Assembly: GCA_903870365.1 (NCBI GenBank)
Contig: CAIQCQ010000034.1
Span: 2,665 to 66,664, forward strand
Length of the DNA stretch: 64,000 nucleotides
Direction: 5' to 3'
From: an uncultured bacterium
Lineage (GTDB): Bacteria > Patescibacteriota > Minisyncoccia > Phycocordibacterales > DATDWN01
A program made the translations under genes and the position numbers. Of this stretch, positions 9,079 to 63,584 are shown one piece after another. Each line of letters opens with the position of its first letter. Positions within the stretch are counted from its first letter, which is position 1. The notes beneath the pieces were generated by a model. It was given only the letters and a program-made list of their open reading frames with translations. It made no database searches and was not told the DNA's origin.

Positions 9079-9498
9079 TTGATACACTTTACACACATGA
9101 AACATACACTCTCAGACAACCTCTCAGTCACCCCTCGAGAAAGTCTCTATGCCACTATAGTAGCTCGTATTGATATGGAAAAAGTTCGACACGCACGACG
9201 TCAATTTGGACGGCTCGTTTCAGGTGCAATCGCTTCTTTTGTACTTTTTATTGGAGCAGTACAATACGCTACACTCCAATTTACTCAATCAGAATTTCCA
9301 CAATATCTTTCTCTCATACTATCTGAAAAAACAGACCTTTTTAACTATTGGCGAGAATTTCTTTATGCCCTGACTGAGTCTTTGCCACTCCTTAGTATCA
9401 CCATATTCTTGGGAGCATTTGGAGTCATGCTTTTCTTTATACAAAAAACATTGAAAAACTTTGGATCGGTATTACCACACGCCACACTTATCTCTTAA
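9079..9498 (+). CDS. putative anti-sigma factor / membrane protein
   Basis: 139 aa with two TM helices, immediately downstream of the ECF sigma gene. Confidence 0.35.
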   Translation: MIHFTHMKHTLSDNLSVTPRESLYATIVARIDMEKVRHARRQFGRLVSGAIASFVLFIGAVQYATLQFTQSEFPQYLSLILSEKTDLFNYWREFLYALTESLPLLSITIFLGAFGVMLFFIQKTLKNFGSVLPHATLIS

Positions 9499-9507
9499 TA
9501 TATTTTT

Positions 9508-10020
9508 ATGCAAGAACAAAACCACACACCATCACATATACGAAGTTTTTTTGAGTCACCATTAATACGTACGGTAATCTCAAAAATACTGATTGTGATT
9601 GTTGGCGTCATTATTGTCGCTTGTATATTTTTGGTTGGCGAAACAGTCGGTTATCACAAAGTTGAAACTTCATATCGTTTTGGCGAAAATTACAACCGTA
9701 TTTTTGAAGGCCAACAGGGTATGCACAATATATTTCTCATGCCTATAGATAATATGTTTTCTGGTACACATGGAGCGTTTGGTAAAATTGTCAAAATAAC
9801 ACTTCCTCAAGTTGTCATTGTCGGACAAGATGGATTAGAAAAAATTATTGTTCTCAATGATGATTCAATTATTAAAGAATTTCGTGGTGATGTCTCTTCA
9901 TCTAGTTTGAGTGTCGGAGACACGATTACTGTCCTCGGGTCTCCTGATGACACTGGGCAAATAACTGCAAAACTGATCCGCGTCGTTCCGAGTACTGCAA
10001 CATCAACTAACATCAAATAA
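9508..10020 (+). CDS. hypothetical membrane-anchored protein
   Basis: 170 aa with an N-terminal TM helix; in the same operon as the sigma/anti-sigma pair. Confidence 0.4.
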   Translation: MQEQNHTPSHIRSFFESPLIRTVISKILIVIVGVIIVACIFLVGETVGYHKVETSYRFGENYNRIFEGQQGMHNIFLMPIDNMFSGTHGAFGKIVKITLPQVVIVGQDGLEKIIVLNDDSIIKEFRGDVSSSSLSVGDTITVLGSPDDTGQITAKLIRVVPSTATSTNIK

Positions 10021-10047: not shown

Positions 10048-11826
10048 ATGAAAAATATCTTTGATGCAGTAAAAAAATATGCTCTCGCTCACAAAATAAT
10101 CAGCACGATTGTTATCTTGGTGGTGATATACGGCGGATACAAAATATATGTGAGCGCTCACACCACCACAGGAGTGACTCGCTATGTCCTTGGTACCGTA
10201 CAAAAAGGCCTTGTTATTTCTAGTCTGTCAGAAAGTGGTCAAGTATCAACCACAAACCAGATTGATGTTGCATCAAAAGTTTCTGGGAATATTACGTGGG
10301 TTGGAGTCAAAGTTGGTGACACTGTCTATGCTGGCCAAGCACTTGCAAGTATTGATAATACAACAGCCAAACAAGCCGTAACTGATGCTGAAGCTTCTCT
10401 TGCCGGAGCCCAATTGCAATATCAACAAGATCAAGCATCCGCACCAATCAACTATCAAAATACACTCACTGCTTTAACAACCGCTCAAGACAACCTTGCT
10501 ACAGAATACAACAATACATTTAATGATCTTTCTAATACATATCTGGATCTCCCGACGGTGATCAATGGTGCACAAAATATTTTATACGGTTTTGATTTGA
10601 GTCCAAGTAAAACACAGGCCAATGCTGACGTATTGATCAATACATTTAACAATGATCTTCAGACGACCGTACGAACGTCGGCAACACAAGCAGAAAGTGA
10701 TTATACAACAGCTCGGTCTTCATATGACCCCGCTCTTGCCCAATATCAAATTACTCAAAGAAATTCTGCAACCAGTACCATCGAAACACTCTTGACGACA
10801 TCAATTCAAACGACTACAAATATTGCGCAAGCACTACAAAGTGAACTTAACTTCCTCGCTCTTGTCAGTGATGTGGCTACCCAAAACAATATTCATATAC
10901 CGACCACAATTACCACACTGCAAACAAATGCAAGAAATTATCTCACCACAACAAACAACGATCTCAGTCTCTTACTTTCAGAAAAGAAAGCCTTACAATC
11001 AGCAAAACAAACAATTACAACTGATCAACAAAACATCGTACTTCTCCAGGTTGGCAACCCAACTCAAGACAACCCCATCACGCTCCAAATTGAAAAAAAT
11101 AACTTGGCCAAACAACAACAAGATTTAGATAATCTCAAAACTACACTCGGATACTATACGATCACCGCTCCTTTTGCCGGCACCATATCTGCTGTGCCTG
11201 CAAAAGTTGGTCTCAATGCGGGAACCATTGCCACTGTGGTCACCAACCAACAAATTGCTCAACTTTCTGTCAACGAAGTAGACGCAGCAAAAATTGCTCT
11301 CGGAGACAAAGCGGTTATTACTTTTGATGCGTTGAGTGACTTGAGTATTACGGGAACTATTAATGAAATTGATCCTGTCGGTACCGTCAGTCAAGGTGTG
11401 GTGAGCTATATCGTCAAAATAACGTTTGATACCCAAGACCCACGTGTCAAACCAGGCATGACAGTCAACGCTTCGATCCAAACAGCAGCACATCCAGATG
11501 TACTGTACGTACCAAGCAGTGCAGTCAAAACAACTGCTGGTGCAAGTTATGTTCAAGCTTTTACTCCCCCACTCGTTGATACCAGTAATGGTGCCGGCAT
11601 GACATCAGCAACACCACCAGTACAAACACCAGTTACTGTTGGTATATCAAACAGCACCAGTGTTGAAATCCTTTCTGGAGTGACCGAAGGACAACAAATT
11701 GTCACACGAACTACGACTGGCACAACAGCCACAAAAACAACAACTACTCCAACTGCCACATCACTCCTTGGGGGTGGTGCCGGAGGACGTCCTGGAGCAA
11801 CTGGTGGGGTAAGAATTGGAGGATAA
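10048..11826 (+). CDS. efflux transporter periplasmic adaptor (HlyD/MacA family) with an extended Q/T/N-rich coiled coil and a Gly-rich tail
   Basis: N-terminal TM; biotinyl-lipoyl-like and beta-barrel segments (ITAPFAGTISAV...GTINEIDPVG); upstream of the MacB-type ABC pair. Confidence 0.7.
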   Translation: MKNIFDAVKKYALAHKIISTIVILVVIYGGYKIYVSAHTTTGVTRYVLGTVQKGLVISSLSESGQVSTTNQIDVASKVSGNITWVGVKVGDTVYAGQALASIDNTTAKQAVTDAEASLAGAQLQYQQDQASAPINYQNTLTALTTAQDNLATEYNNTFNDLSNTYLDLPTVINGAQNILYGFDLSPSKTQANADVLINTFNNDLQTTVRTSATQAESDYTTARSSYDPALAQYQITQRNSATSTIETLLTTSIQTTTNIAQALQSELNFLALVSDVATQNNIHIPTTITTLQTNARNYLTTTNNDLSLLLSEKKALQSAKQTITTDQQNIVLLQVGNPTQDNPITLQIEKNNLAKQQQDLDNLKTTLGYYTITAPFAGTISAVPAKVGLNAGTIATVVTNQQIAQLSVNEVDAAKIALGDKAVITFDALSDLSITGTINEIDPVGTVSQGVVSYIVKITFDTQDPRVKPGMTVNASIQTAAHPDVLYVPSSAVKTTAGASYVQAFTPPLVDTSNGAGMTSATPPVQTPVTVGISNSTSVEILSGVTEGQQIVTRTTTGTTATKTTTTPTATSLLGGGAGGRPGATGGVRIGG

Positions 11827-51120: not shown

Positions 51121-52311
51121 CTACTTCCCCACCTGTTTCAACGCCTTTTCCAAAGCGTGCAGTGCGAAATCAATATCTGCCTGAGTTGTCTCACGACCAA
51201 GTGTAAAGCGGATAGATGACAGTGCACAGTCTGGCTTACCAAGCGAAGCCACCACATAGGACGACGAATCTTCTTTCAATGTTTGGCACGATGATGAATA
51301 CGACGCTGCTACTCCGTAGGTGTCCAAGGCCACTACCAGATATTCTGCATCAAGACCTTTGAAACAGATGCTTATATTATTCGGTACTCGATGTTTACGA
51401 GAACCATTGATTTCCGCACCTTCAAATCGTTTGAGAATTTCATCAATACAATAGTCTCGTAATTTTTCTAGACGAATCGATAGTTCCTTCCGTTCAACCT
51501 TTGCACACGATAAAGCTGTAGCCAGACCAAGCATCCGGGTAACATCTTCTGTACCACTGCGCAAACCCATTTCTTGTCCCCCACCAAACATAACCGGTGA
51601 CCAGTTAACTCCATGACGCACATACAAACAACCAATTCCAGCAGGTCCATACACCTTTAACCCATCCAAAGTTAACAGATCCACTCCCAACGTCGATACA
51701 TCTAATGTGTAGAACAATGGCGCCTGACACGCATCAGTGTGGAAAAGAATCTCGAAGCGAGAAGCTTGAGATTTAATTTTGACTGCGCGGACAATCTCGC
51801 GCAATGGTTGCACGACCCCAATCTCATTATTCACATACATGATCGACACCAACACCGTATTGTTTTGTATCGCATCCACAACCTGCTGTGCAGTAATCAA
51901 TCCATCGGAATCCGGTGTGAGTAATGTTACTTCACCACCTCGTCTGGTGACCTCTGCCAATACTTCCCGGACCGACGAATGTTCGGTCAATACAGAAATA
52001 ATATGTGGTCGTGCAATACCATGCTGTTGTGCATATGCAAATGTACCAAGAATAGCGAGATTGTTACTCTCCGTACCACCAGCAGTAAAAACAATCCGCT
52101 CGTGTGCTGTGTTTAAAAAACGAGCCACTTCACTGCGCGCCTGGAGCATGATTTCTTTGACCTGCCGAGCTTCGGTATACAATGCACTTGGATTGGCAAA
52201 ATGTAACTCCGCATAATCACGCATAACAACTTTAACCTCTGCACGAACAGGGGTGGCCGACGCATAGTCGAGAAATATGCGCTCTTGTTTTTTCTTCAAA
52301 AAATTAAACAT
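51121..52311 (-). CDS. cysteine desulfurase (IscS/NifS family)
   Basis: Class V aminotransferase fold; start taken at MFNFLKK. Confidence 0.8.
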   Translation of the reverse strand: MFNFLKKKQERIFLDYASATPVRAEVKVVMRDYAELHFANPSALYTEARQVKEIMLQARSEVARFLNTAHERIVFTAGGTESNNLAILGTFAYAQQHGIARPHIISVLTEHSSVREVLAEVTRRGGEVTLLTPDSDGLITAQQVVDAIQNNTVLVSIMYVNNEIGVVQPLREIVRAVKIKSQASRFEILFHTDACQAPLFYTLDVSTLGVDLLTLDGLKVYGPAGIGCLYVRHGVNWSPVMFGGGQEMGLRSGTEDVTRMLGLATALSCAKVERKELSIRLEKLRDYCIDEILKRFEGAEINGSRKHRVPNNISICFKGLDAEYLVVALDTYGVAASYSSSCQTLKEDSSSYVVASLGKPDCALSSIRFTLGRETTQADIDFALHALEKALKQVGK

Positions 52312-52373
52312 ATGTTGAGTGTACCGCAAAATGCTTCTTTGCAAAAGAGTATTTTTACTGTATAGTAAATTTC

Positions 52374-52853
52374 ATGCAAATTGACGTTTATTTGATCACA
52401 TATGCACTTGCTGGCATGAGCATCATATTGCTCGGCTGGGTCATCTACCTGCACATAAAAATCCGCCGACTACTCGTAGGTAAAGACGCAAAGTCCCTCG
52501 AAGATACACTGACTCATGCACATGCAGAGATTCGAGAATTGCGAAAATTTGAAACAGAGTGTTTGGCATATTTTACAGATGTTGAAAAACGCCTGAGCAG
52601 ATCCATCCAGGCAGTCGAGACTGTTCGCTTTAACCCTTTTCAGGGTTCAGGTGTCGGAGGAAACCAGAGTTTTTCAACAGTCCTCTTGTCTGAAAAAGGT
52701 GACGGTGTTGTCCTGTCATCTCTCTACTCGCGAGATCGTGTCAGTATTTTCTCCAAGCCACTATCAAAATTCCAAAGTGATTTTGACATGACAGAAGAAG
52801 AACTGTCTGTACTCACATCTGCAAAAGCCAAGGTAGGAATAAACCAAAAATAA
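52374..52853 (+). CDS. DUF4446-like membrane/coiled-coil protein
   Basis: N-terminal TM, coiled coil, FNPFQGSGVGGNQSF. Confidence 0.35.
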   Translation: MQIDVYLITYALAGMSIILLGWVIYLHIKIRRLLVGKDAKSLEDTLTHAHAEIRELRKFETECLAYFTDVEKRLSRSIQAVETVRFNPFQGSGVGGNQSFSTVLLSEKGDGVVLSSLYSRDRVSIFSKPLSKFQSDFDMTEEELSVLTSAKAKVGINQK

Positions 52854-52938
52854 AAATCGATACAATATTTTAATTTCGAAATTTAAAATTTACTCTGAGA
52901 CAAATCTTTACGATGCCGAAACATAATAAAAACAAACC

Positions 52939-54444
52939 ATGCCCGACACTAGCCACACTACAACAAAACGTCCTCCTGTCGTCGCCATCATGGGTCATAT
53001 TGATCATGGTAAATCAACACTCCTCTCATATATTCGTAAAAGCGCCCTCGCGTTAAACGAAGCAGGTGGTATCACTCAGCATATTTCTGCGTATGAAGTC
53101 GAACATCCTACAGCAGACGGCGTAGCGAAGATCACCTTCATCGACACACCCGGACATGCCGCTTTTTCTGGTCACCGCAACCGTGGAGCATCTATCGCTG
53201 ATGTATGTATCCTCGTGGTCTCTGCCGAAGATGGTGTCAAACCTCAAACTGTCGAAGCCCTCAATTCAATAAAAAAAAGCAACACTCCGTATATTGTCGC
53301 CATTACAAAGACAGACAAGCCTGATGCCAATATTGAGCGCACAAAACAATCACTGGCTGAACACGACATCTTTGTTGAAGGCTACGGTGGCGATATCCCT
53401 ATGGTAGCTGTTTCTGGAAAAACCGGCGCTGGTATTCCCGAACTTCTTGATATGATCCTCCTAGTGGCTGATTTGGAAAACCTCATGGGAGATCGCGGAG
53501 CTCTTGCCTCTGGTATGATTATTGAAAATAATCTCGATATCCGTAAAGGTATCTCTGCAACCTGTATCATCACTAATGGAAGTTTGGTCAAGGGTAATTT
53601 TGTTATTTCTGAACAAGCCATCACCCCTGTCCGTATGGTAGAAAATTGGAAAGGCCAACCAATACAAGACGCCACTTTTTCCATGCCGATAAAACTCATT
53701 GGTTGGGATAGTCTACCAACAGTTGGAAGTACCTTTAAAACATTTGAAACAAAAAAAGAAGCGGAAGAATATATAAAGCAAATGGAAAGTGGAAAGTCGA
53801 AAGTGGAAAGTCGAGAAGATACACAGAAAAATACAGACGTTAAAGATTTTCCACTCGTCATCAAAGCAGATACTGGTGGTAGTTTGGAGGCACTGACTCA
53901 GGAGATCATGAAGTCAGAAATGGAACGCATCCGACCACATATTGTTTTTTCTGGTATCGGCGCGGTATCTGAAAACGATATTCGTATGGCCAAAGGTAAA
54001 GACAATGCTATCGTTATCGGTTTTCATGTCAAAGTGGATCCACAAGCAAAAACTCTGGCTGAACGAGATGGTGTGACCATACAACATTTTGATGTCATTT
54101 ATACTATGTCAGAATGGCTCAAAGAAACACTCCTCGCACAAACACCAAAAAGAGAAGTTGAGGAACAAACTGGCGAAGCAAAAGTACTCAAAATGTTCAG
54201 TAAAGTCAAAGACAAACAAGTCATTGGCTGTCGTATGGAAACAGGTAGTATGCACGTCGGCGACATTGTTAAAATCATGCGTCGAGATAGTGAGATTGGT
54301 AGTGGTAAAGTACGCGAACTACAATCACAGAAATTAAAAATCTCGAGTGTCGAAGAAGGTAAAGAATTTGGCACCTTGGTCGAAGCAAAAATAGAAATCG
54401 CTCCTGGTGACAAACTACAGGTATTTACTCTTACTCAAAAATAA
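52939..54444 (+). CDS. infB: translation initiation factor IF-2 (short form)
   Basis: GTPase G1-G4 (GHIDHGKST, DTPGH, TKTD) plus C-terminal domains. Confidence 0.9.
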   Translation: MPDTSHTTTKRPPVVAIMGHIDHGKSTLLSYIRKSALALNEAGGITQHISAYEVEHPTADGVAKITFIDTPGHAAFSGHRNRGASIADVCILVVSAEDGVKPQTVEALNSIKKSNTPYIVAITKTDKPDANIERTKQSLAEHDIFVEGYGGDIPMVAVSGKTGAGIPELLDMILLVADLENLMGDRGALASGMIIENNLDIRKGISATCIITNGSLVKGNFVISEQAITPVRMVENWKGQPIQDATFSMPIKLIGWDSLPTVGSTFKTFETKKEAEEYIKQMESGKSKVESREDTQKNTDVKDFPLVIKADTGGSLEALTQEIMKSEMERIRPHIVFSGIGAVSENDIRMAKGKDNAIVIGFHVKVDPQAKTLAERDGVTIQHFDVIYTMSEWLKETLLAQTPKREVEEQTGEAKVLKMFSKVKDKQVIGCRMETGSMHVGDIVKIMRRDSEIGSGKVRELQSQKLKISSVEEGKEFGTLVEAKIEIAPGDKLQVFTLTQK

Positions 54445-54461
54445 TACAAATAACACATACC

Positions 54462-54791
54462 ATGAGCCTACGAGACGAACGTATAGAAGAACAGTTACGA
54501 GGATTGGCAGGACAGTTTTTGTCGTTGCATGGTAATACCTCATCCTTGCTAACTGTCACCAAAGTTGAGATGTCAAAAGACGCGAAAAATGCTATGATCT
54601 TTTTCACAGTATTCCCGCAAAGTTTCGAGAAAACTGCGTTGCAATTTGCCAAGCGAAAGCGAAGTGAATTTAAACATTTCATCAAAGATAACGTGAGTTT
54701 TGGCAAAATCCCTTTCATTGATTTTGCTATTGATTTGGGTGAGAAAAACCGTCAACGTATTGATGAGATATCAAACATAACCGAAGAATAA
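54462..54791 (+). CDS. rbfA: ribosome-binding factor A
   Basis: 109 aa downstream of infB; KH-like RbfA pattern. Confidence 0.8.
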   Translation: MSLRDERIEEQLRGLAGQFLSLHGNTSSLLTVTKVEMSKDAKNAMIFFTVFPQSFEKTALQFAKRKRSEFKHFIKDNVSFGKIPFIDFAIDLGEKNRQRIDEISNITEE

Positions 54792-54794
54792 TAC

Positions 54795-54869
54795 GACCTG
54801 GTGGCCAAGTGGTAAGGCGAAGCTCTGCAAAAGCTTTATACGGCGGTTCGATTCCGCCCCAGGTCTCCA
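54795..54869 (+). tRNA. tRNA-Cys(GCA), CCA encoded
   Basis: Hand-folded; anticodon loop CTGCAAA; T-loop TTCGATT. Confidence 0.8.
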
Positions 54870-54895
54870 AGAAAAAGTTTTACTTTTTCTCACAT

Positions 54896-54977
54896 GCCTG
54901 GGTGGTGGAATTGGTTTACACGCACGACTTAAAATCGTGTTCCGCAAGGAATATGGGTTCGACTCCCATCCCAGGCA
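54896..54977 (+). tRNA. tRNA-Leu(TAA)
   Basis: Hand-folded; anticodon loop CTTAAAA; long variable arm. Confidence 0.75.
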
Positions 54978-55030
54978 CTAGAAAATCACAAAGTGATTTT
55001 TAGCTGGGAAACAAAACCAATATCTTGGTT

Positions 55031-55098
55031 TTGTGTTGGGAATCGAACAGATTGTCGGTCTACGCTCACACCAGTGAGTGTCGACAATCTGGTGCCCA
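55031..55098 (+). repeat. Repeat-D copy (10-bp stem CAGATTGTCG / CGACAATCTG)
   Basis: Preceded by an A6CC..GGT6 hairpin; lies between two perfect 26-bp copies of the tRNA-Leu 3' end (54961-54986 and 55136-55161). Confidence 0.8.
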
Positions 55099-55169
55099 GA
55101 AATATTCAAGCGACGGCGAGAACATTTCGAGGGAGACTCCCATCCCAGGCACTAGAAAATACTTTCACA

Positions 55170-55201
55170 AAAAATTTCCATACGTGTATGGAAATTTTTT
55201 G
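55170..55201. terminator. bidirectional terminator hairpin
   Basis: AAAAAATTTCCATAC-g-GTATGGAAATTTTTT. Confidence 0.7.
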
Positions 55202-55207
55202 TATCTG

Positions 55208-55280
55208 TGCGCCCACCAGGGATCGAACCTGGGACCTTGTCCTTAAGAGGGACCTGCTCTACCAGCTGAGCTATAGGCGC
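55208..55280 (-). tRNA. tRNA-Lys(CTT)
   Basis: Hand-folded; anticodon loop CTCTTAA; T-loop TTCGATC. Confidence 0.75.
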
Positions 55281-55487
55281 ATATTAATTTATTCTCACAT
55301 ACCGAGCCTCTACTGTATACCGACCAAAACAGTCCCAAACCAGACAAAAAGTATTCTACCATTTTATTTATGAAAACCAAAGTACACCCCCAGAATTTTC
55401 TACATAAAAAATTATTGATAATCCCCTTTTCATCATTTTCAGAGTTGATATAATTGGTATACACTATTTGTCTTAGTTATAGAAAAA

Positions 55488-56138
55488 ATGAGTAAAAGAA
55501 AATCAAAAATAAAAATCATCTGGACAACAAATTTTGCATACGCAATAGGGCTAATTACTACAGATGGTAACCTATCCAATGATGGTAGACATATTCTCTA
55601 TACAACAAAAGATGAACAACTAGCTATTACATACAAAAAATGCCTAGATATCACAAATAAAATTGGTAAAAAATCAAGAGGATTTGGAAAAGAAAAAAAG
55701 TATTACGTAATACAGTTTGGTGATATAAATTTTTATGAATTTCTTATTACTATTGGAATAACACCCCGCAAATCAAAAACCCTTATACAAATACAAATAC
55801 CAAATAAATATTTTGCGGATTTTTTACGAGGATGTATTGATGGTGACGGTACTATTTCAATATCAGATCATCCAGAGTCACAATACAAACAATTAAAAAT
55901 TCGTTTATCTTCTGCAAGCCCGTTATTTCTTCAATGGATTGGCGAAAAAATAGCTCTTTTGATCAAAACAAAAGGTGGTCATATTTATACAGATAAAACA
56001 AAATCCGTCTCAACACTTTCTTATGCAAAAGCAGATGGTGGAAAAATCCTGAAATGTATGTATTATAAGAAGGATCTTCCTTGTTTAAAAAGAAAAGAGA
56101 AGATTGCTAAAAAATGGGCGAGTGGCGCAATTGGCTAG
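55488..56138 (+). CDS. LAGLIDADG homing endonuclease (two-motif, free-standing)
   Basis: FAYAIGLITTDGNL and FLRGCIDGDGTISI; the last 7 codons and the stop overlap tRNA-Leu(TAG). Confidence 0.8.
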   Translation: MSKRKSKIKIIWTTNFAYAIGLITTDGNLSNDGRHILYTTKDEQLAITYKKCLDITNKIGKKSRGFGKEKKYYVIQFGDINFYEFLITIGITPRKSKTLIQIQIPNKYFADFLRGCIDGDGTISISDHPESQYKQLKIRLSSASPLFLQWIGEKIALLIKTKGGHIYTDKTKSVSTLSYAKADGGKILKCMYYKKDLPCLKRKEKIAKKWASGAIG

Positions 56139-56198
56139 ACGCGCTAGTCTTAGGAACTAGTGGAGCAATCCGTGGGGGTTCAAGTCCCCCCTCGCCCA
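56116..56198 (+). tRNA. tRNA-Leu(TAG)
   Basis: Hand-folded; anticodon loop CTTAGGA; long variable arm; T-loop TTCAAGT. Confidence 0.75.
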
Positions 56199-57820
56199 CC
56201 CTTAGAGACTTTGAGGTCTTCGAGATCATCAAAGGGTGAATTAAGTGTTGTATTTACTACATTTTTTCCTTGAATGGTAAAGTTCAAGAAGATTTTGCGT
56301 ATAAAATAGTCCAATTCTTTCATATCTCTGCTTTTAGCTATATAACTAGCGGTATTATCTAGTAGTTCAAGGAACTCAGCGTAAGTCAGTATATTGACCT
56401 TGCCCTTAGCGATAAGTTTTTGAGCTTTTTGTATCTCCCCATTGATCGTAACTATTTCTGCCTTAGACTTCTGTAAATCTAATTTATACTCATCCTTTAT
56501 TTCCTTTGTCTCATCACTAATAAGCATATCCTTTATCTTGACGATCTTCTCATTTATTTTTCTTTCTTTAGCTTGCAAAGAAAGTACTTGTGTTTTTGCT
56601 TTAGAAATCCTCTGATCAGAAACTATTTTCATTTCTTTGGTGTAGTGATCGTAACTCTTTTCGGATGAAAAAGGCTTTTGATCCAAATACTTACAAATAT
56701 AATCAATCACTACTTTTGCTCTGACTGATTTCCCATACATATCACAGTCATCAGTTTCGCATCTATAATAAAAATAGTTTGTTGTACCCTCTTTCGTTTT
56801 CTTTGCAGTAATACCTGCACTCATAGGCTCACCACACTCTGCACACAAAACCATTCCTCTCAGCAGATCAGCTTTCACACCACCAGTTTTCCTATACTTT
56901 TTTGTGATAGCTATAAGTTGTTTGTCCTTAGAAAGTTTATTGATTGTCATAAACTCTGGAACGGTAATCATGGCTGAAAATCCATAATGTTCAATCAAAT
57001 TGATCACATCATTTTTCCCATAGTTGAGAATACCTGTATAGATAGGGTCTTTCATAAACTTCTCTACCCTTTGCTTGGTCATTTTTATAAATCTTGGCGT
57101 ATGATCCTTATGCCAGGTATGGTAGCCATTACTATTTAGAAAATCAGCTATTTCTGACATAATAACGCCACGCAATCTCATCTTAAATGCTTCTTTGATG
57201 AGAAGAAAATTATTGCCATCTGGCTGCAAACGCTGAAGTGCATCTTTGTAATATCCATGCTTTGCTTTATTGATATACTTGCCCTCACCCACACTTCTCT
57301 TATTACCTCTGCTCACATTATCGCTGAGCTTGTCAGAGTATTCTTTTGACAACACAAAGGTAATGCCTAAAAGCATTTTTCCACTCGTGTCATTTTGAAA
57401 AGTAAAACTGACAAACTTCAAATCTCTGATAATCTGCTTATCAACAAGATCAATAATTTCTCCCGCCTCTTTCATATTTCTAGCAAGACGATCAGGATGC
57501 CATGCTATCACCCCACCGTATTTACCCTTTTTAAGGTCATTGAGTAACTGTCTAAACTTAGGTCTCGTATCAGGCTCTTTTGCCGACTCAGCTTCTACAA
57601 TAATATCTTGCTTCTTTACAGTAATATCATTCCTCTCTGCAAACTCAGTACACTCTGCTATTTGGTCCTGCAAAGAGCGAACTTGTTTATCACTTTCATC
57701 AGTGGATTTTCTAACATAAATTGCATAGACGCAGTCTTCAGGGACAAAAACACTATCACTGCTTTTTAGCTGTTGTAGTGCATTTTTTAGTTCTTCAGGA
57801 GTTGTAATCGGATTAAGCAT
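56180..57820 (-). CDS. large serine recombinase (integrase)
   Basis: N-terminal resolvase domain (AIYVRKSTDESDKQVRSLQDQ) plus a large C-terminal recombinase / zinc-ribbon / coiled-coil region; 546 aa. Confidence 0.85.
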   Translation of the reverse strand: MLNPITTPEELKNALQQLKSSDSVFVPEDCVYAIYVRKSTDESDKQVRSLQDQIAECTEFAERNDITVKKQDIIVEAESAKEPDTRPKFRQLLNDLKKGKYGGVIAWHPDRLARNMKEAGEIIDLVDKQIIRDLKFVSFTFQNDTSGKMLLGITFVLSKEYSDKLSDNVSRGNKRSVGEGKYINKAKHGYYKDALQRLQPDGNNFLLIKEAFKMRLRGVIMSEIADFLNSNGYHTWHKDHTPRFIKMTKQRVEKFMKDPIYTGILNYGKNDVINLIEHYGFSAMITVPEFMTINKLSKDKQLIAITKKYRKTGGVKADLLRGMVLCAECGEPMSAGITAKKTKEGTTNYFYYRCETDDCDMYGKSVRAKVVIDYICKYLDQKPFSSEKSYDHYTKEMKIVSDQRISKAKTQVLSLQAKERKINEKIVKIKDMLISDETKEIKDEYKLDLQKSKAEIVTINGEIQKAQKLIAKGKVNILTYAEFLELLDNTASYIAKSRDMKELDYFIRKIFLNFTIQGKNVVNTTLNSPFDDLEDLKVSKGGRGGT

Positions 57821-57971
57821 AGTTGGCAGTATTTTATCATTTTTGCTTACTACCGCCTAAATACACTGGATTATGAAAAATGGAGTGGTTTTGAGACAAA
57901 CCATAGTATTTACTGGTTACGAGCTATAGAGAGCAGGATCCTTTGAATAGGAGCTGGTGTGGGTCTATATA

Positions 57972-58742
57972 TCAATCAGACCAGCCTAAACGCTCGTTAT
58001 TTTTAGGACGAAACATTTTGAACTTTATTCGGTATTCAACTTCTTTAGATATAAATACGGGATCGCCACCACCATATAAAGAAATCTTTGGCTTTCCATT
58101 TTTCTCATAAAAATCTTTATCGTGTTTCTCTATATCAAAAATAGTAGCTTCATATGCAAGTCGATGCTCGTATGAGAAACCTCTGTCTTTCAATTCTTTC
58201 TCGATATGATCAGGCCACTTGATAATGAGGTTATCTTCAGAGTCATCGAAACGTAGACCGAGTTCAACAAGAAACTGTACGATGCTATTCAGAGGAAAGA
58301 TCACGAGCCAATCTTCTTTCTTTCCAATCGTATCAAGTCCACCGATATATTGATCAAAACAATTATTACGGATGCTGTCTTCGGTAATAGCGACTGCATA
58401 TTTATTCTCTAGGACTCTATCAACAGTAGGTCCCATTTTAGAGCCAAACATATAACCACAGTGCATAAACTCGTCTGTTGGAAAAGTTCGTTCTATGTCT
58501 CCCGATGCTATCCTTTGAAAACGACTAGTTAGACCACTTGCTGAGTCATAATATTCAGTGAACTCGTAATATGTTCCGTATATTCCATGTCTGCCGTTTT
58601 TCTCATATTCTGCGAACATTTCTTTCAACTCCTGTGAAATTTCTGACCCAGCAATTTTCTCAGCCAATCTTTTCCAGTCGACAAACGGCGTAACATCTAA
58701 TTTGTATCCGAATTGTTTTGGGAAGATTTGTTTTCCGAACAT
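57972..58742 (-). CDS. hypothetical protein (island cargo)
   Basis: 256-aa ORF, no recognised motifs. Confidence 0.5.
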   Translation of the reverse strand: MFGKQIFPKQFGYKLDVTPFVDWKRLAEKIAGSEISQELKEMFAEYEKNGRHGIYGTYYEFTEYYDSASGLTSRFQRIASGDIERTFPTDEFMHCGYMFGSKMGPTVDRVLENKYAVAITEDSIRNNCFDQYIGGLDTIGKKEDWLVIFPLNSIVQFLVELGLRFDDSEDNLIIKWPDHIEKELKDRGFSYEHRLAYEATIFDIEKHDKDFYEKNGKPKISLYGGGDPVFISKEVEYRIKFKMFRPKNNERLGWSD

Positions 58743-58772
58743 AGTATTTTTATATAAAGATATTATAGCTTT

Positions 58773-59132
58773 TTATGCACCTATTCGTCCAAACCTTGCA
58801 TCATTGATCATTTGTTCCCACGATGAGAAATAACTTGATAATCGAGATAGATTTCCAAGAGCACCCCAAGCCATAACGGAAAAATGCTCAATTTTTACTT
58901 TCTGTTCCTTACCGTTTTCTTGGTAAAGAACATACAAATGATCTACACCAGCGCCAACGCCCTTTTGACTATTCACACTTTGAATACTTTTGACTGGTAT
59001 AGTAAACATTTTCTTACCACCTTTTGTCTCAAAATATAGATCCATCTTTGTGAGCACAAGTGCACCAGACTTTGTATTGAATAAACCACCTTTGAACTTT
59101 AGTTTATCTTCTTTCTTTATAATTTGTTCCAT
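58773..59132 (-). CDS. hypothetical protein, PH/GRAM-like (bPH-like)
   Basis: GALVLTKMDLYFETKGGKKMFTIPVKSI pattern. Confidence 0.35.
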   Translation of the reverse strand: MEQIIKKEDKLKFKGGLFNTKSGALVLTKMDLYFETKGGKKMFTIPVKSIQSVNSQKGVGAGVDHLYVLYQENGKEQKVKIEHFSVMAWGALGNLSRLSSYFSSWEQMINDARFGRIGA

Positions 59133-59367
59133 GTGTTTTCAGTTATCTAGTAAGCCACATGGAAACTTTTTGATACAAAAAGCCCACCACATGGGTGAGG
59201 GCCGAAGCCCTCCATACCAGTTTCCCGATATGACCTGTAACAGCACCCCATATGATGGGTTTTTTATCTGTTACAGGATTTTTCACCATGCCAGTGATTG
59301 CTCAGTGGTTTAGGCTACTTTTGCTTATTCAGTTGTATACTTCTATCATATCACTTTTCCAATAAAA

Positions 59368-60663
59368 TTAAACTGTTTTAAGAATACTAATAATTTTAAT
59401 GTTATTCTCTAGGACATCTTTAACTTCAGAAGCTACTGGCTCTTTGCCTTTATGGATAATTTCATTTCTAACCAAATCGTAAGATTTTAACCATTTATCC
59501 CATAAACCCTTATCTTTTTCAGCAATAGTAAAACCAATCGCTTCTTTCAATACATCTTTCAGACGGTCTTTAGTCCTCCAATTTTTATCTAGATAATCAA
59601 TTGCATCTTTTTCACTCAATCCTTTATTTTTTTTAAGTTGCTCAATCAAAAAGTTTTCAACAAAAATCTCTAGAGATTGGAAAGATTGCATAACCGCCAA
59701 AGGGTAGTTGCGTATGTTGAATGAGTTTTGCGCATCAAGTAACAAAAGATTGTAGAGATCGGGAGTTTCCCCAGTTTCAAGCATTCTTTCCATTTCTTCT
59801 ATTTCCTTTTTGGACCTATTCATAACCGCTGCTTCTGTATTTACAGGAGAAAAAACCAACCCCTCATTTAAGTCAATAAAATAAACCATGTTTAAAGTTA
59901 CTTCCCCCAATCTCGTAAGATGCTCTTGTTTTGTTACAAATCTATAAGTATCTATGAGATTATTTACGATTTTAAAACAGATTTCTTTTACTTTTTCTTC
60001 TATGAGAGTTCGTGCAGACTCCTCTTCAAGTTCTTCTTTCTTAACTGAAAGATCAAACTGAACATACAGACGAGTAAAACGAAATCGACCATTACGATCC
60101 TTCATCCTCTGAACATTAAACCCAGTGTAATTATGTTCCCACCCCTCAGTAGAGTCCAAAGGTATTTTAGGTCCTACGATGACGTACTTTTGAAAATACA
60201 AAACCTTATCTTCAGCGAAAAAATCTGTTGGATTAGAGACTTCTGTATCAGTTTGTGCTTTCTTTGTCCAAATCTTTGTAGGAATTATTAAAGCTTTTTC
60301 TCCAGTTTCTTTTGAAAATAAGACTTCAATTTCATAGTCATTAGGTATATCAATACAATAAGGGATGTGTAACTCTGCCAAAACATTTCCGTAATCAAAA
60401 TCTTTTAGAAAATCTGAGTCAACATACTTGAACGAAGTTCCTAATTTATAAATACCGCTTACAGGAGTAGGAGAAACATTTTTAAGGTCTACCATTAAAG
60501 CACTCTTTTGTTGTTCTTCTGTCATACTTAAAAATCTCTCCTTATCGACTAAAGAGTTTAATTTAAGAGTCTCCACTCTGTCTTGTATGGAAACTGTCGC
60601 ATCAATAAAGACGGACATCTTTTTTCTTCGTACTGGATCAGACATGACTTTTCCAAGCAACAA
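59368..60663 (-). CDS. hypothetical protein with a C-terminal HEPN-like domain (RNxxxH)
   Basis: LVRNEIIHKG gives the R-N-x3-H motif within the last ~40 residues of a helical C-terminal region; N-terminal 300 aa unknown. Confidence 0.5.
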   Translation of the reverse strand: MLLGKVMSDPVRRKKMSVFIDATVSIQDRVETLKLNSLVDKERFLSMTEEQQKSALMVDLKNVSPTPVSGIYKLGTSFKYVDSDFLKDFDYGNVLAELHIPYCIDIPNDYEIEVLFSKETGEKALIIPTKIWTKKAQTDTEVSNPTDFFAEDKVLYFQKYVIVGPKIPLDSTEGWEHNYTGFNVQRMKDRNGRFRFTRLYVQFDLSVKKEELEEESARTLIEEKVKEICFKIVNNLIDTYRFVTKQEHLTRLGEVTLNMVYFIDLNEGLVFSPVNTEAAVMNRSKKEIEEMERMLETGETPDLYNLLLLDAQNSFNIRNYPLAVMQSFQSLEIFVENFLIEQLKKNKGLSEKDAIDYLDKNWRTKDRLKDVLKEAIGFTIAEKDKGLWDKWLKSYDLVRNEIIHKGKEPVASEVKDVLENNIKIISILKTV

Positions 60664-60982
60664 TTATCTGTATTATTCCGACTACCACTAACGCAGCAGT
60701 TAGCCATTGCATTGCTGTAGCATGACGATCATTACTTTTAGCTAGAGTCTCATTTGATTTAATCAATTTGTCTGTTGTTTCGTGAAGTGCAACTCGATTT
60801 TCTTTTGTTGACTCGGCTACCTGCAACTGAAGTAATTGCAATGACTCCGCTACATTCAAAGAAGCAAGTGCAGTTGCATACCCAGTATGTGCATCCATTT
60901 GAGCACCTAAACCCAAGCCATTTAATTGGGAAAGTTTTTGTTCAACTTGGTCATTTCTAGTTTTGTTTGGTAATTTGTCCAT
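60638..60982 (-). CDS. small coiled-coil protein with a C-terminal TM anchor
   Basis: 114 aa; overlaps the next ORF by 26 nt (translational coupling). Confidence 0.45.
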   Translation of the reverse strand: MDKLPNKTRNDQVEQKLSQLNGLGLGAQMDAHTGYATALASLNVAESLQLLQLQVAESTKENRVALHETTDKLIKSNETLAKSNDRHATAMQWLTAALVVVGIIQIIVAWKSHV

Positions 60983-61084
60983 ATACCCAGTATGATACTC
61001 TCTTCAAAATAAAATGTCATATTCGTGGTATTTACCGTAAAATTATAGTAAACTGTGTTGTAATTAACATTAACAACAATTATC

Positions 61085-62494
61085 ATGTCGAACTCAGAGG
61101 CTACTATTATCAATGACGATCAGGATCTCATTGATGCAGGTTACAAACCACAACTAAAGCGAAAAATTGGTTTCTTTGCTTCCTTCGCAGCCTCATTCTC
61201 CATTATGTCAGTACTCATGGGAGTATTTACAAACTATGGGTATGTACTTGGTAAAGCGGGGCCGTTTGGTTTGTGGACATGGTTTATTGTTGGCTTTGGG
61301 CAGCTCATGGTAGCACTTGTTTTTGCTGAGATGGCAGGGCGTATTCCACTCACAGGAGCTTTGTATAACTGGAATGATAAACTAGGTCATCCTGCGATCA
61401 GTTCTCTTGTCGCTTGGCTCTCAATTTTTGCATACGCCATTGGAGCAGCAGGCATCATTGTCATTATGATGGCACCGCTTCAATCACTCATTGGACACAG
61501 TTTAAGTATGGGTACAATTCAAATAGTTGGACTAGCGATTATTGCTGTTCAAATGTTTATTAGCATTTACGGTATTCGTTTAGCTGCTTCAATAAACAAG
61601 TTTGCTGTTGTTGCTGAGATACTTGCTCTTATTGTTTTCGGTGGATTACTTCTTTTTGTAGTTGCAGCAAAAGGCCAGATCAATACTTCTTACCTAACAA
61701 CAATTCCTAGTACTCCAGTTCCATATTGGCCAGCTTTCCTTATTTCAATTCTTTTGGGAGCTTGGACAATTTTTGGTTTTGAGGCACCATCTGATCTTTC
61801 TGAAGAAACTCTAAATGTGAAACGTATAGTGCCGAAAAGTATTATCTCAGGCATTATCACTTCTATTGTTCTCGGTGCTTTCTTTATTGGAGTAGTAACA
61901 ATTGCCATTCCTAATCTTGCAACAGTTACTGCATCTGCTGATCCTATTTCTACAATCTTCGCTACTCATTTAGGTCAAGGGTTAACAAATGTAATGCTTC
62001 TCATGGTTCTTATTGCGATGTTTGCTACCGCACTTCTCAATCTCACAGTTGCAACTCGTGTTTTGTTTGCAATTTCTCGTGATGAAAAGTTTGTCGGACA
62101 TTCATTGCTCAAAAAAGTTTCTTCTCATGGTATCCCTGTCTATTCTGTCATTGCAATCATTGCAGTTGAAGTCATCACATTCTTAACCATGTACGGACTA
62201 TCAGCAATTTATGCTTCTGCTATTGTTTTACTTGGATTGGCTTACTTGATCACAGTAGTTAATTTTGTGTTGAACATTAAAAAATTACCACCTACAACAA
62301 ACTTTTCATTGGGCAAGTGGCACTGGCCAGTAGTAATAATCTCAATAGTTTGGTTGGTTCTTTTGCTTATTGTTCTCACAATACCGCAAGAGTTCCATCT
62401 AGCAGCAGAGATTGGTGCAGGAGTTGTTATTCTGGGATTTGTACAGTATTTTCTTCAGCGAGCTTCTAAAGGTAAAGTTGTAGCGATTTCCTAA
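61085..62494 (+). CDS. amino acid permease (APC superfamily)
   Basis: 469 aa, 12 TM, APC-type N-terminus. Confidence 0.8.
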   Translation: MSNSEATIINDDQDLIDAGYKPQLKRKIGFFASFAASFSIMSVLMGVFTNYGYVLGKAGPFGLWTWFIVGFGQLMVALVFAEMAGRIPLTGALYNWNDKLGHPAISSLVAWLSIFAYAIGAAGIIVIMMAPLQSLIGHSLSMGTIQIVGLAIIAVQMFISIYGIRLAASINKFAVVAEILALIVFGGLLLFVVAAKGQINTSYLTTIPSTPVPYWPAFLISILLGAWTIFGFEAPSDLSEETLNVKRIVPKSIISGIITSIVLGAFFIGVVTIAIPNLATVTASADPISTIFATHLGQGLTNVMLLMVLIAMFATALLNLTVATRVLFAISRDEKFVGHSLLKKVSSHGIPVYSVIAIIAVEVITFLTMYGLSAIYASAIVLLGLAYLITVVNFVLNIKKLPPTTNFSLGKWHWPVVIISIVWLVLLLIVLTIPQEFHLAAEIGAGVVILGFVQYFLQRASKGKVVAIS

Positions 62495-62958
62495 GTTGTG
62501 GCCGTCTCTTTTGAAGTCATGATCACCTTAGCTGTCGTGAAGGTTCTTCCTTTAACCCTCTTACCTTTTGGACTCCATCCTGCAACTACTTGAAGCCACA
62601 GAGCTACACTTCCTGGATCACCAGTTTGTATAGCTCTCCTGTACAAAGAAAACAAAACATTTTTAGTCAGATTGTGTCCCCACCGAGATATTTCACTTAA
62701 AGACTCATTCTGTTTGATCAGATTATTCCAGTTGGTCAGTGTAGACATTTCAACTCCATACTTTTGAGAAAACTCAGTCTGAGTACGGATTTTGAGTAAC
62801 TCACCATACTGAGCATCTTCGTCGGTAAGTTGCTGTGCTACCCTTTCAGCAATTTGACGCTTCAAAAGCACGGGAATAGTTCTCCATGTTTTATATACTT
62901 CAAACACATCTCTCCTATAGGGTTGTGCTGTATTTTTGGTATTTTTTGGTATTTCCAC
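62491..62958 (-). CDS. hypothetical HTH-containing protein
   Basis: 155 aa; FSQKYGVEMSTLTNW HTH-like. Confidence 0.35.
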   Translation of the reverse strand: MEIPKNTKNTAQPYRRDVFEVYKTWRTIPVLLKRQIAERVAQQLTDEDAQYGELLKIRTQTEFSQKYGVEMSTLTNWNNLIKQNESLSEISRWGHNLTKNVLFSLYRRAIQTGDPGSVALWLQVVAGWSPKGKRVKGRTFTTAKVIMTSKETATT

Positions 62959-63027
62959 AATACCTTAATTTTACCAAATCTCGTCAAAGAAGACAGGGAT
63001 CAGGTACAGAGTTCAAGATAAATACTC

Positions 63028-63243
63028 TTATTGTTTTGGAGGAGGATTTTGACCCAAAGTAATGATTTCTCCTGTCGGAGCGACTACTTGCTGAGGACCA
63101 GATGCTTGGGGCGGCTGAGGGTTACTGACGGGTGCAGGATTTGCTTGTGGAGCAGGAGGTGTCGGAGGAGTTGGAGGTAATACTTCGATCACATCGGTCA
63201 AATTATCTTTGTTTGTAGGTCTAAATGGGCTATTCATAAGCAT
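63028..63243 (-). CDS. hypothetical Pro-rich small protein
   Basis: 71 aa, PPTPPTPPAPQANPAP. Confidence 0.3.
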   Translation of the reverse strand: MLMNSPFRPTNKDNLTDVIEVLPPTPPTPPAPQANPAPVSNPQPPQASGPQQVVAPTGEIITLGQNPPPKQ

Positions 63244-63396
63244 ATTATATCAAATCAGAATGTTACATACAATGCAGATTTCTCTCTTTCTTTAGCCATA
63301 AACTTTCTAATATCATCATTCCACTGCTCTATAGTTTCTATGTTAGTATTTATGATATCGAAAAGTTCAAGCGTAGCATTTAAATGCCCACAAATC

Positions 63397-63420
63397 AAAA
63401 AACCGCGAAAGCGGTTTTTT
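63397..63420. terminator. bidirectional terminator
   Basis: AAAAAACCGC-gaaa-GCGGTTTTTT. Confidence 0.7.
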
Positions 63421-63445
63421 GTTTGGTGCGAGAACAAAACAAAGC

Positions 63446-63516
63446 TTTGTGTGGGAGACTTGAACAGATTGTCGGTCTACGCTCGTACCAACAAGTGTCG
63501 ACAATCTGGCGACTAG
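63446..63516 (+). repeat. Repeat-D copy
   Basis: GAACAGATTGTCGGTCTACGCTC...TGTCGACAATCTGG; same preceding-hairpin architecture as the 55031 copy. Confidence 0.8.
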
Positions 63517-63584
63517 AATTTTTTAATTTGACGAAATTAAAAAATTCGGTGGCTAGTCCCCCTCACCCCCACCCCCCACACCCA

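Follow-up and report, generated by a model that had tools for sequence, protein, structure and literature searches.

A LAGLIDADG endonuclease gene and a serine recombinase island at opposite ends of one tRNA-Leu(UAG) gene in an uncultured member of the Patescibacteria

The 64,000-nucleotide stretch of contig CAIQCQ010000034.1 analyzed here, referred to below as the window, comes from an uncultured member of the Patescibacteria and contains a tRNA-Leu(TAG) gene that is entered from both ends by protein-coding open reading frames (ORFs) (Table 1). A gene for a LAGLIDADG endonuclease runs into the 5′ end of the tRNA on the same strand, and a gene for a large serine recombinase, which belongs to a 7,192-bp island, runs into its 3′ end on the opposite strand. 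The tRNA gene was predicted by ARAGORN at 56115-56201 and by the Rfam tRNA model at 56116-56198 (53.5 bits against a gathering score of 29), and the agreement of the two methods upholds the tRNA call of the preliminary description of this DNA. The acceptor stem, as read by hand, consists of GGGCGAG (56116-22) and CTCGCCC (56191-97) and is followed by the discriminator base A56198. The gene is nearly identical to those of two relatives (L168 and L169). To the left lie genes for IF-2 and RbfA and a tRNA cluster in the order Cys, Leu(TAA), Lys(CTT), and Leu(TAG), and homologs assign the organism to the Patescibacteria/Paceibacteria.

Table 1. Features in and around the tRNA-Leu(TAG) gene of the window
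Feature	Position	Strand	Evidence
tRNA-Lys(CTT), left neighbor of the endonuclease gene	55207-55280	-	ARAGORN, Rfam
Promoter-like site TTTTCA-16-TATAAT with preceding TG	55427-55454	+	Consensus scan, pattern match
Free-standing two-motif LAGLIDADG endonuclease gene, 216 aa	55488-56138	+	ORF, Pfam LAGLIDADG_3
23-nt overlap, end of endonuclease ORF inside tRNA	56116-56138	+	Read from sequence
tRNA-Leu(TAG)	56116-56198	+	Rfam 53.5 bits, ARAGORN
T-loop GTTCAAG, proposed zinc-ribbon-domain motif, attB left arm	56178-56184	+	Spacing compared with PMC3783163, inferred
Large serine recombinase, integrated form, 546 aa	56180-57820	-	Pfam, PHROG integrase
attL core GCCCAC, common to attB and attP	56194-56199		Occupied window compared with L002
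Integrated element (genomic island), 7,192 bp	56200-63391		L002 junction; GC content
attP right arm (P′), codes for recombinase C-terminal ...DDLEDLKVSKG	56200-56230		Inverted repeat; kept in L166
Island ORF, 256 aa, no family match	57972-58742	-	ORF list, Pfam, PHROG, NCBIfam
Island ORF, 119 aa	58773-59132	-	GRAM/PH-like match E = 0.0024, below Pfam cut-off
LOOT RNA (Rfam RF03000)	59197-59316	-	90.2 bits against gathering score 46.4
Island ORF, 431 aa	59368-60663	-	Matches PHROG of unknown function
Amino-acid permease cargo, 469 aa	61085-62494	+	Pfam AA_permease_2 E = 2.3e-38; NCBIfam
Island ORF, 155 aa, no family match	62491-62958	-	ORF list, Pfam
Detached 3′ end of excised-form recombinase ORF, 43 codons (HLNATLELFDIINTNIETIEQWNDDIRKF...) and stop	63255-63391	-	In-silico circle junction
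attP left arm (P), GTTCAAG at 63365-71; attR core GCCCAC at 63386-91	63352-63391		att-site comparison with L166
Host flank right of the element, the original tRNA-Leu trailer	63392-63440	+	Identity to L002 tail

The endonuclease matches the Pfam family LAGLIDADG_3 (E = 2.8e-9) and contains the motifs AIGLITTDG and LRGCIDGDG. Residues D26, G27, and D118-G121, among them the two catalytic acidic positions, show no variation across 39 homologs. An AlphaFold model (predicted local distance difference test, 93.4; predicted template modeling score, 0.90) shows the two-domain LAGLIDADG fold with its pseudo-symmetric alpha-beta-beta-alpha-beta-beta-alpha order, and the best Foldseek match was I-Tsp061I (2dch, E = 3e-11), followed by I-AniI, I-DmoI, and I-SceI. 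The ORF is best read as that of a free-standing two-motif LAGLIDADG homing endonuclease, presumably an active one. Its final codons, W-A-S-G-A-I-G, and its TAG stop (56136-38) lie within the acceptor and D arm of the tRNA, and the preliminary description was correct in placing the last seven codons and the stop there. The tRNA-encoded end of the protein (its last five residues) is unstructured in the model. An endonuclease borne by an intron or intein was rejected, as no intron was matched, nothing interrupts the tRNA, and the ORF begins at a start of its own outside any extein context. A scan of 54700-56400 for group I and group II introns gave no Rfam match at the gathering score or at E <= 1, and the earlier remark that the gene does not obviously lie inside an intron or intein holds. 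A promoter-like site precedes the gene, in a region where such sites are no more numerous than in shuffled sequences.

The recombinase contains, in Pfam terms, a Resolvase domain (E = 3.4e-22), a Recombinase domain (PF07508), and a Zn_ribbon_recom domain (PF13408), the last two above their cut-offs, and it has matches in the PDB to the catalytic domain of TP901-1 integrase. Residues Y35, R37, and S39 are invariant in 40 homologs, and so are the zinc-ribbon cysteines C326, C329, C354, and C359 in the homolog alignment. Residues 400 to 480, approximately, are rich in lysine and glutamate, and the 546-residue protein of the window is identical to homolog P0001. By its domain architecture the protein is a large serine integrase, and it is predicted to catalyze integration and excision. 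Its stop codon falls in the T-loop of the tRNA, and the tRNA gene also supplies the codons for the four C-terminal residues (RGGT). The resulting overlap of 19 nt on the opposite strand (56180-56198) agrees with the coordinates reported earlier.

An exact-protein look-up of the window's endonuclease found five metagenome contigs (L001-L005) that carry the gene. One of them, L002, is identical to positions 51357-56199 of the window and then departs from it, and its final 49 nt are identical to positions 63392-63440 (49/49). L002 joins 56199 directly to 63392; thus, positions 56200-63391 are an inserted element, and L002 represents the unoccupied site. The GC content is 0.34-0.39 across the island compared to approximately 0.42 to its left. 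The preliminary description had suggested an attachment site in the 3′ region of the tRNA-Leu(TAG) gene, and L002 shows this directly, with the junctions at 56199/56200 and 63391/63392. The occupied junction is found in the four other contigs, which are identical to the window across the tRNA. These four contigs, from independent assemblies, stop 30-215 nt past the tRNA/attL junction (56229-56413 in the window), and such assembly breaks are expected of an assembly graph when occupied and empty alleles coexist in a population. The identity between attL and attR is limited to the 6-bp sequence GCCCAC (56194-99 and 63386-91), which lies within the acceptor stem and discriminator. Positions 1-74 of the tRNA are identical in the occupied and empty forms, since the element brings an identical copy of the last bases, and the mature tRNA-Leu sequence is therefore unaltered by the insertion.

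Sequences orthologous to the flank on the right of 63391 immediately follow tRNA-Leu(TAG) in four relatives (L167-L170). The flank includes an inverted repeat (63389-63428) with the shape of a terminator-like hairpin, followed by a GGGCGAG-like stretch. A different explanation would make L002 a chimeric contig and the recombinase a local invertase or resolvase instead of the integrase of a 7.2-kb element, and the facts that L002 reaches just 49 nt past the junction and that the neighboring tRNA-Lys(CTT) is inverted in some genomes could be cited for it. This explanation is very improbable, as a k-mer assembler is not misled by a 6-bp repeat, the flank beyond the junction is orthologous to the tRNA-Leu(TAG) trailer of the four relatives, and the recombinase has the full architecture of a large serine recombinase and a circular relative with the same attP. 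Furthermore, tRNA-Lys is inverted also in L170, which has no recombinase.

Besides the recombinase gene, the island contains a gene for an amino-acid permease, a LOOT RNA, and four ORFs of unknown function. A scan of IMG/VR for the recombinase clade gave just three weak matches, and thus nothing marks the island as a prophage. A tRNA island of the tyrosine-integrase type was rejected, since none of the island ORFs has a Phage_integrase domain and the attL/attR repeat is just 6 bp long.

Joining 63391 to 56200 in silico, as in an excised circle, lengthens the recombinase ORF from 546 to 585 residues and replaces the tRNA-encoded RGGT with HLNATLELFDIINTNIETIEQWNDDIRKFMAKEREKSALYVTF. A homolog of this detached tail is present in a circular relative, contig L166 of 4,929 nt, whose recombinase (P0028) has 577 residues and a tail resembling the predicted excised-form tail. 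L166 is considered circular because its two ends share a 30-nt direct repeat, as is typical of contigs assembled from circular DNA. Its recombinase ORF runs through an attP of like layout, with GTTCGAG, 14 nt, and GCCCACC, the attP sequences being AAAAGTTCGAGCGTGGTATGCTTACGCCCACCGTTTAAGACTTTTGAGGT in L166 and AAAAGTTCAAGCGTAGCATTTAAATGCCCACCCTTAGAGACTTTGAGGT in the window. The cargo of L166 (118-1821) is a 567-residue AAA_15/AAA_21 ATPase, a domain combination that is common in anti-phage systems.

The attP arms (63352-71 and 56209-29) form an imperfect inverted repeat, 15/20 by hand alignment, with its axis on the GC of GCCCAC. When this GC is taken as the center, GTTCAAG spans positions 16-22 of the attP left arm, 14 nt from the GC, and positions 11-17 of attB (T-loop, tRNA G53-G59), 9 nt from the GC. 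In the case of LI integrase, the motif bound by the zinc-ribbon domain is found at bp 16-24 in attP and 5 bp nearer the center in attB (Rutherford 2013, PMC3783163), and the 5-bp shift of GTTCAAG from attP to attB agrees exactly with this arrangement. We propose that the T-loop GTTCAAG may serve as the recognition motif of the zinc-ribbon domain. The crossover dinucleotide must lie within GCCCAC, with GC at 56194-95 (tRNA positions 69-70) as the favored candidate. The T-loop and its spacing to positions 69-70 are alike in all tRNAs, and this would explain the breadth of tRNA targets. The recombinase would carry out recombination between an attP in the 3′ end of the ORF that encodes it and an attB formed by the T-arm and acceptor stem of the tRNA, and integration would exchange a 43-residue recombinase tail for four tRNA-encoded residues. 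In the integrated state the recombinase gene and the tRNA are convergent and a consensus scan finds no terminator between them, so that read-through from the tRNA would be antisense to the recombinase mRNA.

Several observations count against this account of the recombinase and its site. An unbiased scan of attP for inverted symmetry gave moderate scores, 17-18/35 (that of attB was dominated by the hairpin just right of the core), and the assignment of the arms therefore depends on the hand alignment and the comparison with L166. The P′ arm agrees with GTTCAAG at 4/7 positions. An exact look-up of the 585-residue excised-form protein showed it to be absent from the protein collection, and the circle of this particular element was not found. 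Finally, no recombination directionality factor was identified.

Homologs of the recombinase show the same relation to tRNA genes. Among the 120 best homologs, used for the comparison of tails, almost all end in ...N-x-P-F-D-x-L-x-x-x-K-V-S-x-G-G followed by a peptide that is antisense to the 3′ end of a tRNA, such as GARERT, GGTRTLNPYGTRF, or RTRTCDLLSVNELLYQLS. Eighty metagenome loci were collected, 64 of which could be evaluated, and in 58/64 the recombinase stop lies inside an antisense tRNA. The tRNAs at these 58 loci are those for Pro (24), Val (9), Glu (7), Leu (5), Ala (4), Ile (3), Gly (3), and Asp, Lys, and Gln (1 each), and the distance from the PF motif to the tRNA 3′ end is 34-40 nt at 40/49 loci. 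An attP inside the recombinase gene is thus a property of the whole clade. In contigs L091 and L111, at tRNA-Leu(TAG), and L092, at tRNA-Leu(GAG), the TAG and GAG insertions being from different metagenomes, the element flank (ttgaagatactttatgcc..., around 11600-11700) is identical; one element type has therefore used two isoacceptors, which suggests a relaxed choice of isoacceptor.

The LOOT RNA was observed 0.1-1.6 kb upstream of the recombinase gene in the window and at 9/22 other recombinase loci scanned (L166 2440-2554, L088 8404-8531, L096 6040-6161, L098 5068-5190, L099 5405-5525, and L106 6694-6808; also L086, L087, and L089). Where it lies within approximately 0.5 kb of the recombinase gene, it is on the opposite strand (L096, L098, L099, L106, and L166); in the window and the L086-L089 type, it is on the same strand, 1.4-1.5 kb upstream. 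The LOOT RNA appears to be a regular component of these recombinase elements, and this orphan motif gains a genomic context through its recurrence beside them.

Relatives of the endonuclease were sought in one genome per GTDB species; 409 were found and the best 80 loci were analyzed. The next gene after the endonuclease gene is tRNA-Leu(TAG) at 76/80 loci and tRNA-Leu(GAG) at 2/80, and the endonuclease stop lies inside the tRNA at 57/80. Fifty-five of the 75 intact copies stop inside a same-strand tRNA, the commonest overlaps being 10, 24, 13, 15, and 22 nt, which reflect different reading frames. The gap to a same-strand tRNA is 0-30 nt in 13 intact copies and larger in 2, and the two copies with premature stops complete the same-strand set. 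At six loci the tRNA is on the opposite strand, with the 3′ end of the endonuclease gene against the tRNA's 3′ end, and two of these six endonuclease ORFs stop inside it. These six convergent loci indicate that the conserved feature is linkage to the tRNA gene and not the leader position alone. As acceptor-stem sequence faces the 3′ end of the endonuclease gene in both orientations, there is a hint that the acceptor stem forms part of the target. Only a few codons separate the end of the conserved C-terminal helix from tRNA position +1, so the tRNA-encoded tails are best seen as incidental read-through. In L029 (approximately 3150-3436), the end of the endonuclease ORF carries a duplicated 3′ fragment of tRNA-Leu(TAG) (TGGTGCCGGGGAAAAGAC), and the genuine tRNA follows approximately 200 nt later; this suggests that DNA was subsequently inserted between the two genes.

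The overlaps might be thought accidents of a compact genome or of ORF calling, given that Patescibacteria genomes are compact, that the tRNA-encoded tails are short, variable in frame, and not conserved as protein, and that the last five endonuclease residues are unstructured in the model. At the family level this idea is refuted, and its probability is negligible, since the linkage recurs across very divergent genomes (78/80 endonuclease loci and 58/64 recombinase loci) and the empty site shows that the recombinase overlap is the recombination junction itself. Equally negligible is the chance that the endonuclease gene and the recombinase form one composite element with the tRNA as an internal part. 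The two genes do flank one tRNA and share a low-GC stretch that begins near 55000, and a tRNA-Asp of L110 likewise has a LAGLIDADG paralog on one side and a recombinase on the other. Nevertheless, the empty-site contig L002 retains the endonuclease gene without the island, which makes that gene independent of the island; a recombinase match was found at just 2/80 endonuclease loci (L007 and L039), with 24-29% identity and 1.0-1.5 kb past the ORF; and recombinase islands lie at tRNA-Leu(TAG) in L091, L104, and L111, which have no endonuclease gene. The endonuclease gene was rejected as a part of the island on the basis of L002 and reciprocal tblastn.

The geometry of the endonuclease gene and the tRNA suggests a mechanism. 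The endonuclease gene sits in the spacer between tRNA-Lys and tRNA-Leu, directly against position +1 of the tRNA, and its ORF reads on into the tRNA to the first in-frame stop. A consensus scan gave no terminator-like site between the ORF and the tRNA, and the ORF is probably co-transcribed with the tRNA as a long 5′ leader of the pre-tRNA. RNase P would free the intact tRNA by cutting the mRNA 21 nt upstream of the stop (which begins at 56136), would leave the endonuclease mRNA without a stop codon, and would thereby restrict translation of the endonuclease to unprocessed transcripts. The removal of the stop by RNase P, already pointed out in the preliminary description, can validly be inferred from this geometry. 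A tentative extension, possible although not what we would expect on balance, is that LAGLIDADG and PD-(D/E)XK homing genes of Patescibacteria use pre-tRNA 5′ leaders as a safe harbor, in which RNase P replaces the self-splicing of intron- and intein-borne endonuclease genes, an essential and conserved target is left unharmed by the insertion, and the stop-less mRNA keeps the nuclease scarce.

The distribution of the endonuclease gene is patchy. In the four closest relatives by IF-2 (L167-L170, 60-69% identity), RbfA precedes the tRNA series Cys-Leu(TAA)-Lys(CTT)-Leu(TAG), the Lys-Leu spacers measure 14-279 nt, and the endonuclease gene is absent; a comparison with the uninterrupted locus, proposed at the outset, thus found the tRNA cluster without the gene in all four. 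The gene is absent also at tRNA-Leu(TAG) in L091, L104, and L115 and is present at the same tRNA-Leu spot in more distant lineages. Premature stops were found in 2/80 copies (L037 and L065). LAGLIDADG paralogs also enter other tRNAs, by 18 nt at tRNA-Cys (L167 8897-9634), by 37 nt at tRNA-Tyr (L167 1319-498), and by 23 nt at tRNA-Asp (L110 3141-2467), and a PD-(D/E)XK ORF (PF11645) overlaps the 5′ end of tRNA-Tyr (L170 1230-1607). Patchy presence, decay, and paralogs at other tRNAs are hallmarks of homing endonuclease genes that share a niche. A putative endonuclease target in or near a tRNA gene, as suggested earlier, has strong support from linkage, 78/80 homologs abutting tRNA-Leu(UAG/GAG).

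Other results weigh on the opposite side. First, the orientation is convergent at 6/78 loci, where the logic of leader and RNase P cannot apply. Second, a comparison of tRNA-Leu(TAG) alleles and upstream flanks with and without the endonuclease gene revealed no candidate difference in target or immunity. The endonuclease-free alleles are A/T-rich upstream of tRNA position +1 and resemble the end of the endonuclease ORF there, so that immunity of the carrier is hard to explain. Third, the endonuclease is more conserved than IF-2 in 94% of 171 genome pairs (mean identity 59% compared to 51%), and the distances between endonucleases follow those between the hosts (Mantel r = 0.80, p about 5e-4). 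Part of the picture must consequently be either long retention by vertical descent under selection or transfer that occurs mainly among relatives.

These last two results are what would be expected if the LAGLIDADG protein had been domesticated and were inherited vertically, with a role tied to tRNA-Leu(UAG), such as WhiA-like DNA binding or regulation or activity as an RNA chaperone or maturase, and were no longer an active homing endonuclease. The position after IF-2, RbfA, and the tRNAs is kept in many lineages, 76/79 evaluable copies are intact, and WhiA and the bI3 maturase are among the structural neighbors. Domestication is nonetheless unlikely: the gene is missing in the four closest relatives, despite their having the same tRNA cluster, and at other tRNA-Leu(TAG) loci of Patescibacteria, L037 and L065 have premature stops, both catalytic acidic residues are invariant, and the paralogs and an unrelated PD-(D/E)XK gene at the equivalent spot of other tRNAs are typical of selfish genes.

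What we observed directly is how the genes overlap the tRNA, an unoccupied site, a circular relative, linkage throughout both families, and a patchy distribution, and we consider it likely that two unrelated selfish elements occupy this locus, one at each end of a single tRNA-Leu(UAG) gene. A degenerate or fused arrangement, the other possibility raised in the preliminary description, is not needed, as both genes are intact and the arrangement is normal for two separate element families. The locus is a meeting point of two mobile-element families, each specialized on the ends of tRNA genes in Patescibacteria. In the related sequences, both arrangements, the endonuclease at the tRNA 5′ end and the serine-integrase island at the 3′ end, prove to be family-wide habits.

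Additional features were noted among the neighboring tRNA genes. Upstream of tRNA-Leu(TAG), at endonuclease loci L006-L085, tRNA-Lys(CTT) is on the same strand in 18 cases and on the opposite strand in 14, and it is inverted also in L170 (9375-9448), a genome with neither the endonuclease gene nor the recombinase. These flips look like a recurrent small inversion that is independent of the endonuclease gene. A perfect 26-nt direct repeat (54961-54986 and 55135-55160), composed of the final 17-18 nt of tRNA-Leu(TAA) and 8-9 nt of its trailer, surrounds a 148-nt insert, a pattern characteristic of a miniature or decayed element that has integrated at the tRNA-Leu(TAA) 3′ end. Furthermore, a 70-nt repeat occurs in two copies (55040-55109 and 63457-63526, 81% identity), approximately 60 nt downstream of each tRNA-Leu gene. 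It has a 10-bp stem (CAGATTGTCG/CGACAATCTG) enclosing an inner hairpin, with two compensatory pair changes between the copies, and its end looks like a tRNA T-arm in inverted orientation (GGGAGACTTGAAC). In L168, the spacer 9282-9560 contains a homolog flanked by direct repeats, and a scan of the repeat against Rfam gave no match.

Serine integrases are the main tools for the insertion of large DNA, and tRNA genes are considered not to be among their natural targets. This picture would change with a clade directed at the T-arm and acceptor stem of tRNAs, and, if the universally conserved T-loop is indeed read, members of the clade could integrate into almost any bacterium. That attP lies within the ORF of the integrase points to an inherent difference between the forms of the enzyme made before and after integration. 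A nuclease gene in a pre-tRNA leader that is removed by RNase P, if this proves true, would represent a third harmless route into a conserved gene, besides introns and inteins. The analysis also describes mobile DNA of bacteria of the candidate phyla radiation (CPR), a group where little of it is known. Literature searches found no published description of a tRNA association of the endonuclease or the recombinase in CPR bacteria and no paper describing this tRNA-targeting recombinase clade.

Compared to known large serine integrases (Listeria A118/LI, Bxb1, phiC31, and TP901-1), the recombinase shares the Resolvase domain, recombinase domain, and zinc ribbon, the short identity between att sites, and a recognition motif that lies 5 bp nearer the center in attB than in attP. 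It differs in targeting tRNA genes of many identities at their 3′ ends, in having attP inside the integrase ORF, and in being carried by a 5-7 kb non-phage element. The use of tRNA genes by serine integrases was stated to be previously unreported in a study that found it for 4.9% of their elements and asked for proof (Mageeney 2020, PMC7192596). The CcrAB and CcrC recombinases of SCCmec are similar in that a large serine recombinase inserts an island with cargo at the very 3′ terminus of a conserved housekeeping gene, which is not inactivated, and different in that the target there is a protein gene (rlmH/orfX); the NCBIfam CcrB/CcrC matches of our recombinase are weak (73 bits against a cut-off of 900), and it is not a Ccr member. 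Islands and prophages inserted at tRNA genes by tyrosine integrases (P4-like, NBU, and AICE) show the same insertion at the tRNA 3′ end, the same place of the integrase by attL, and the same restoration of the tRNA end, but they employ another enzyme chemistry and have a direct repeat of 15-50 bp, in contrast to the 6-bp identity here.

Gene truncation that depends on integration is known from the immunity systems of the mycobacteriophage BPs type and from SSV1, whose integrase is split by its own attP. As in these systems, attP lies in coding sequence and the integrated and excised states differ in the protein C-terminus; here the enzyme is a serine integrase and only a 43-residue tail is exchanged. 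The endonuclease shares with I-Tsp061I and I-DmoI, its best matches in sequence and structure, the monomeric two-motif LAGLIDADG fold of approximately 200 residues. Their identity to it is approximately 18%, and they are encoded by archaeal rRNA introns, whereas the gene described here is free-standing at a tRNA gene. SegB, a phage enzyme of the GIY-YIG type, lies between tRNA genes with an ORF that is not known to enter a tRNA, and it is believed to promote the inheritance of its region. The two genes are alike in being free-standing and linked to tRNAs, but the one described here is a cellular LAGLIDADG gene fixed at the boundary of tRNA-Leu(UAG). Phage T4 SegB has been described as a free-standing homing endonuclease in a tRNA gene cluster (PMC13096335).

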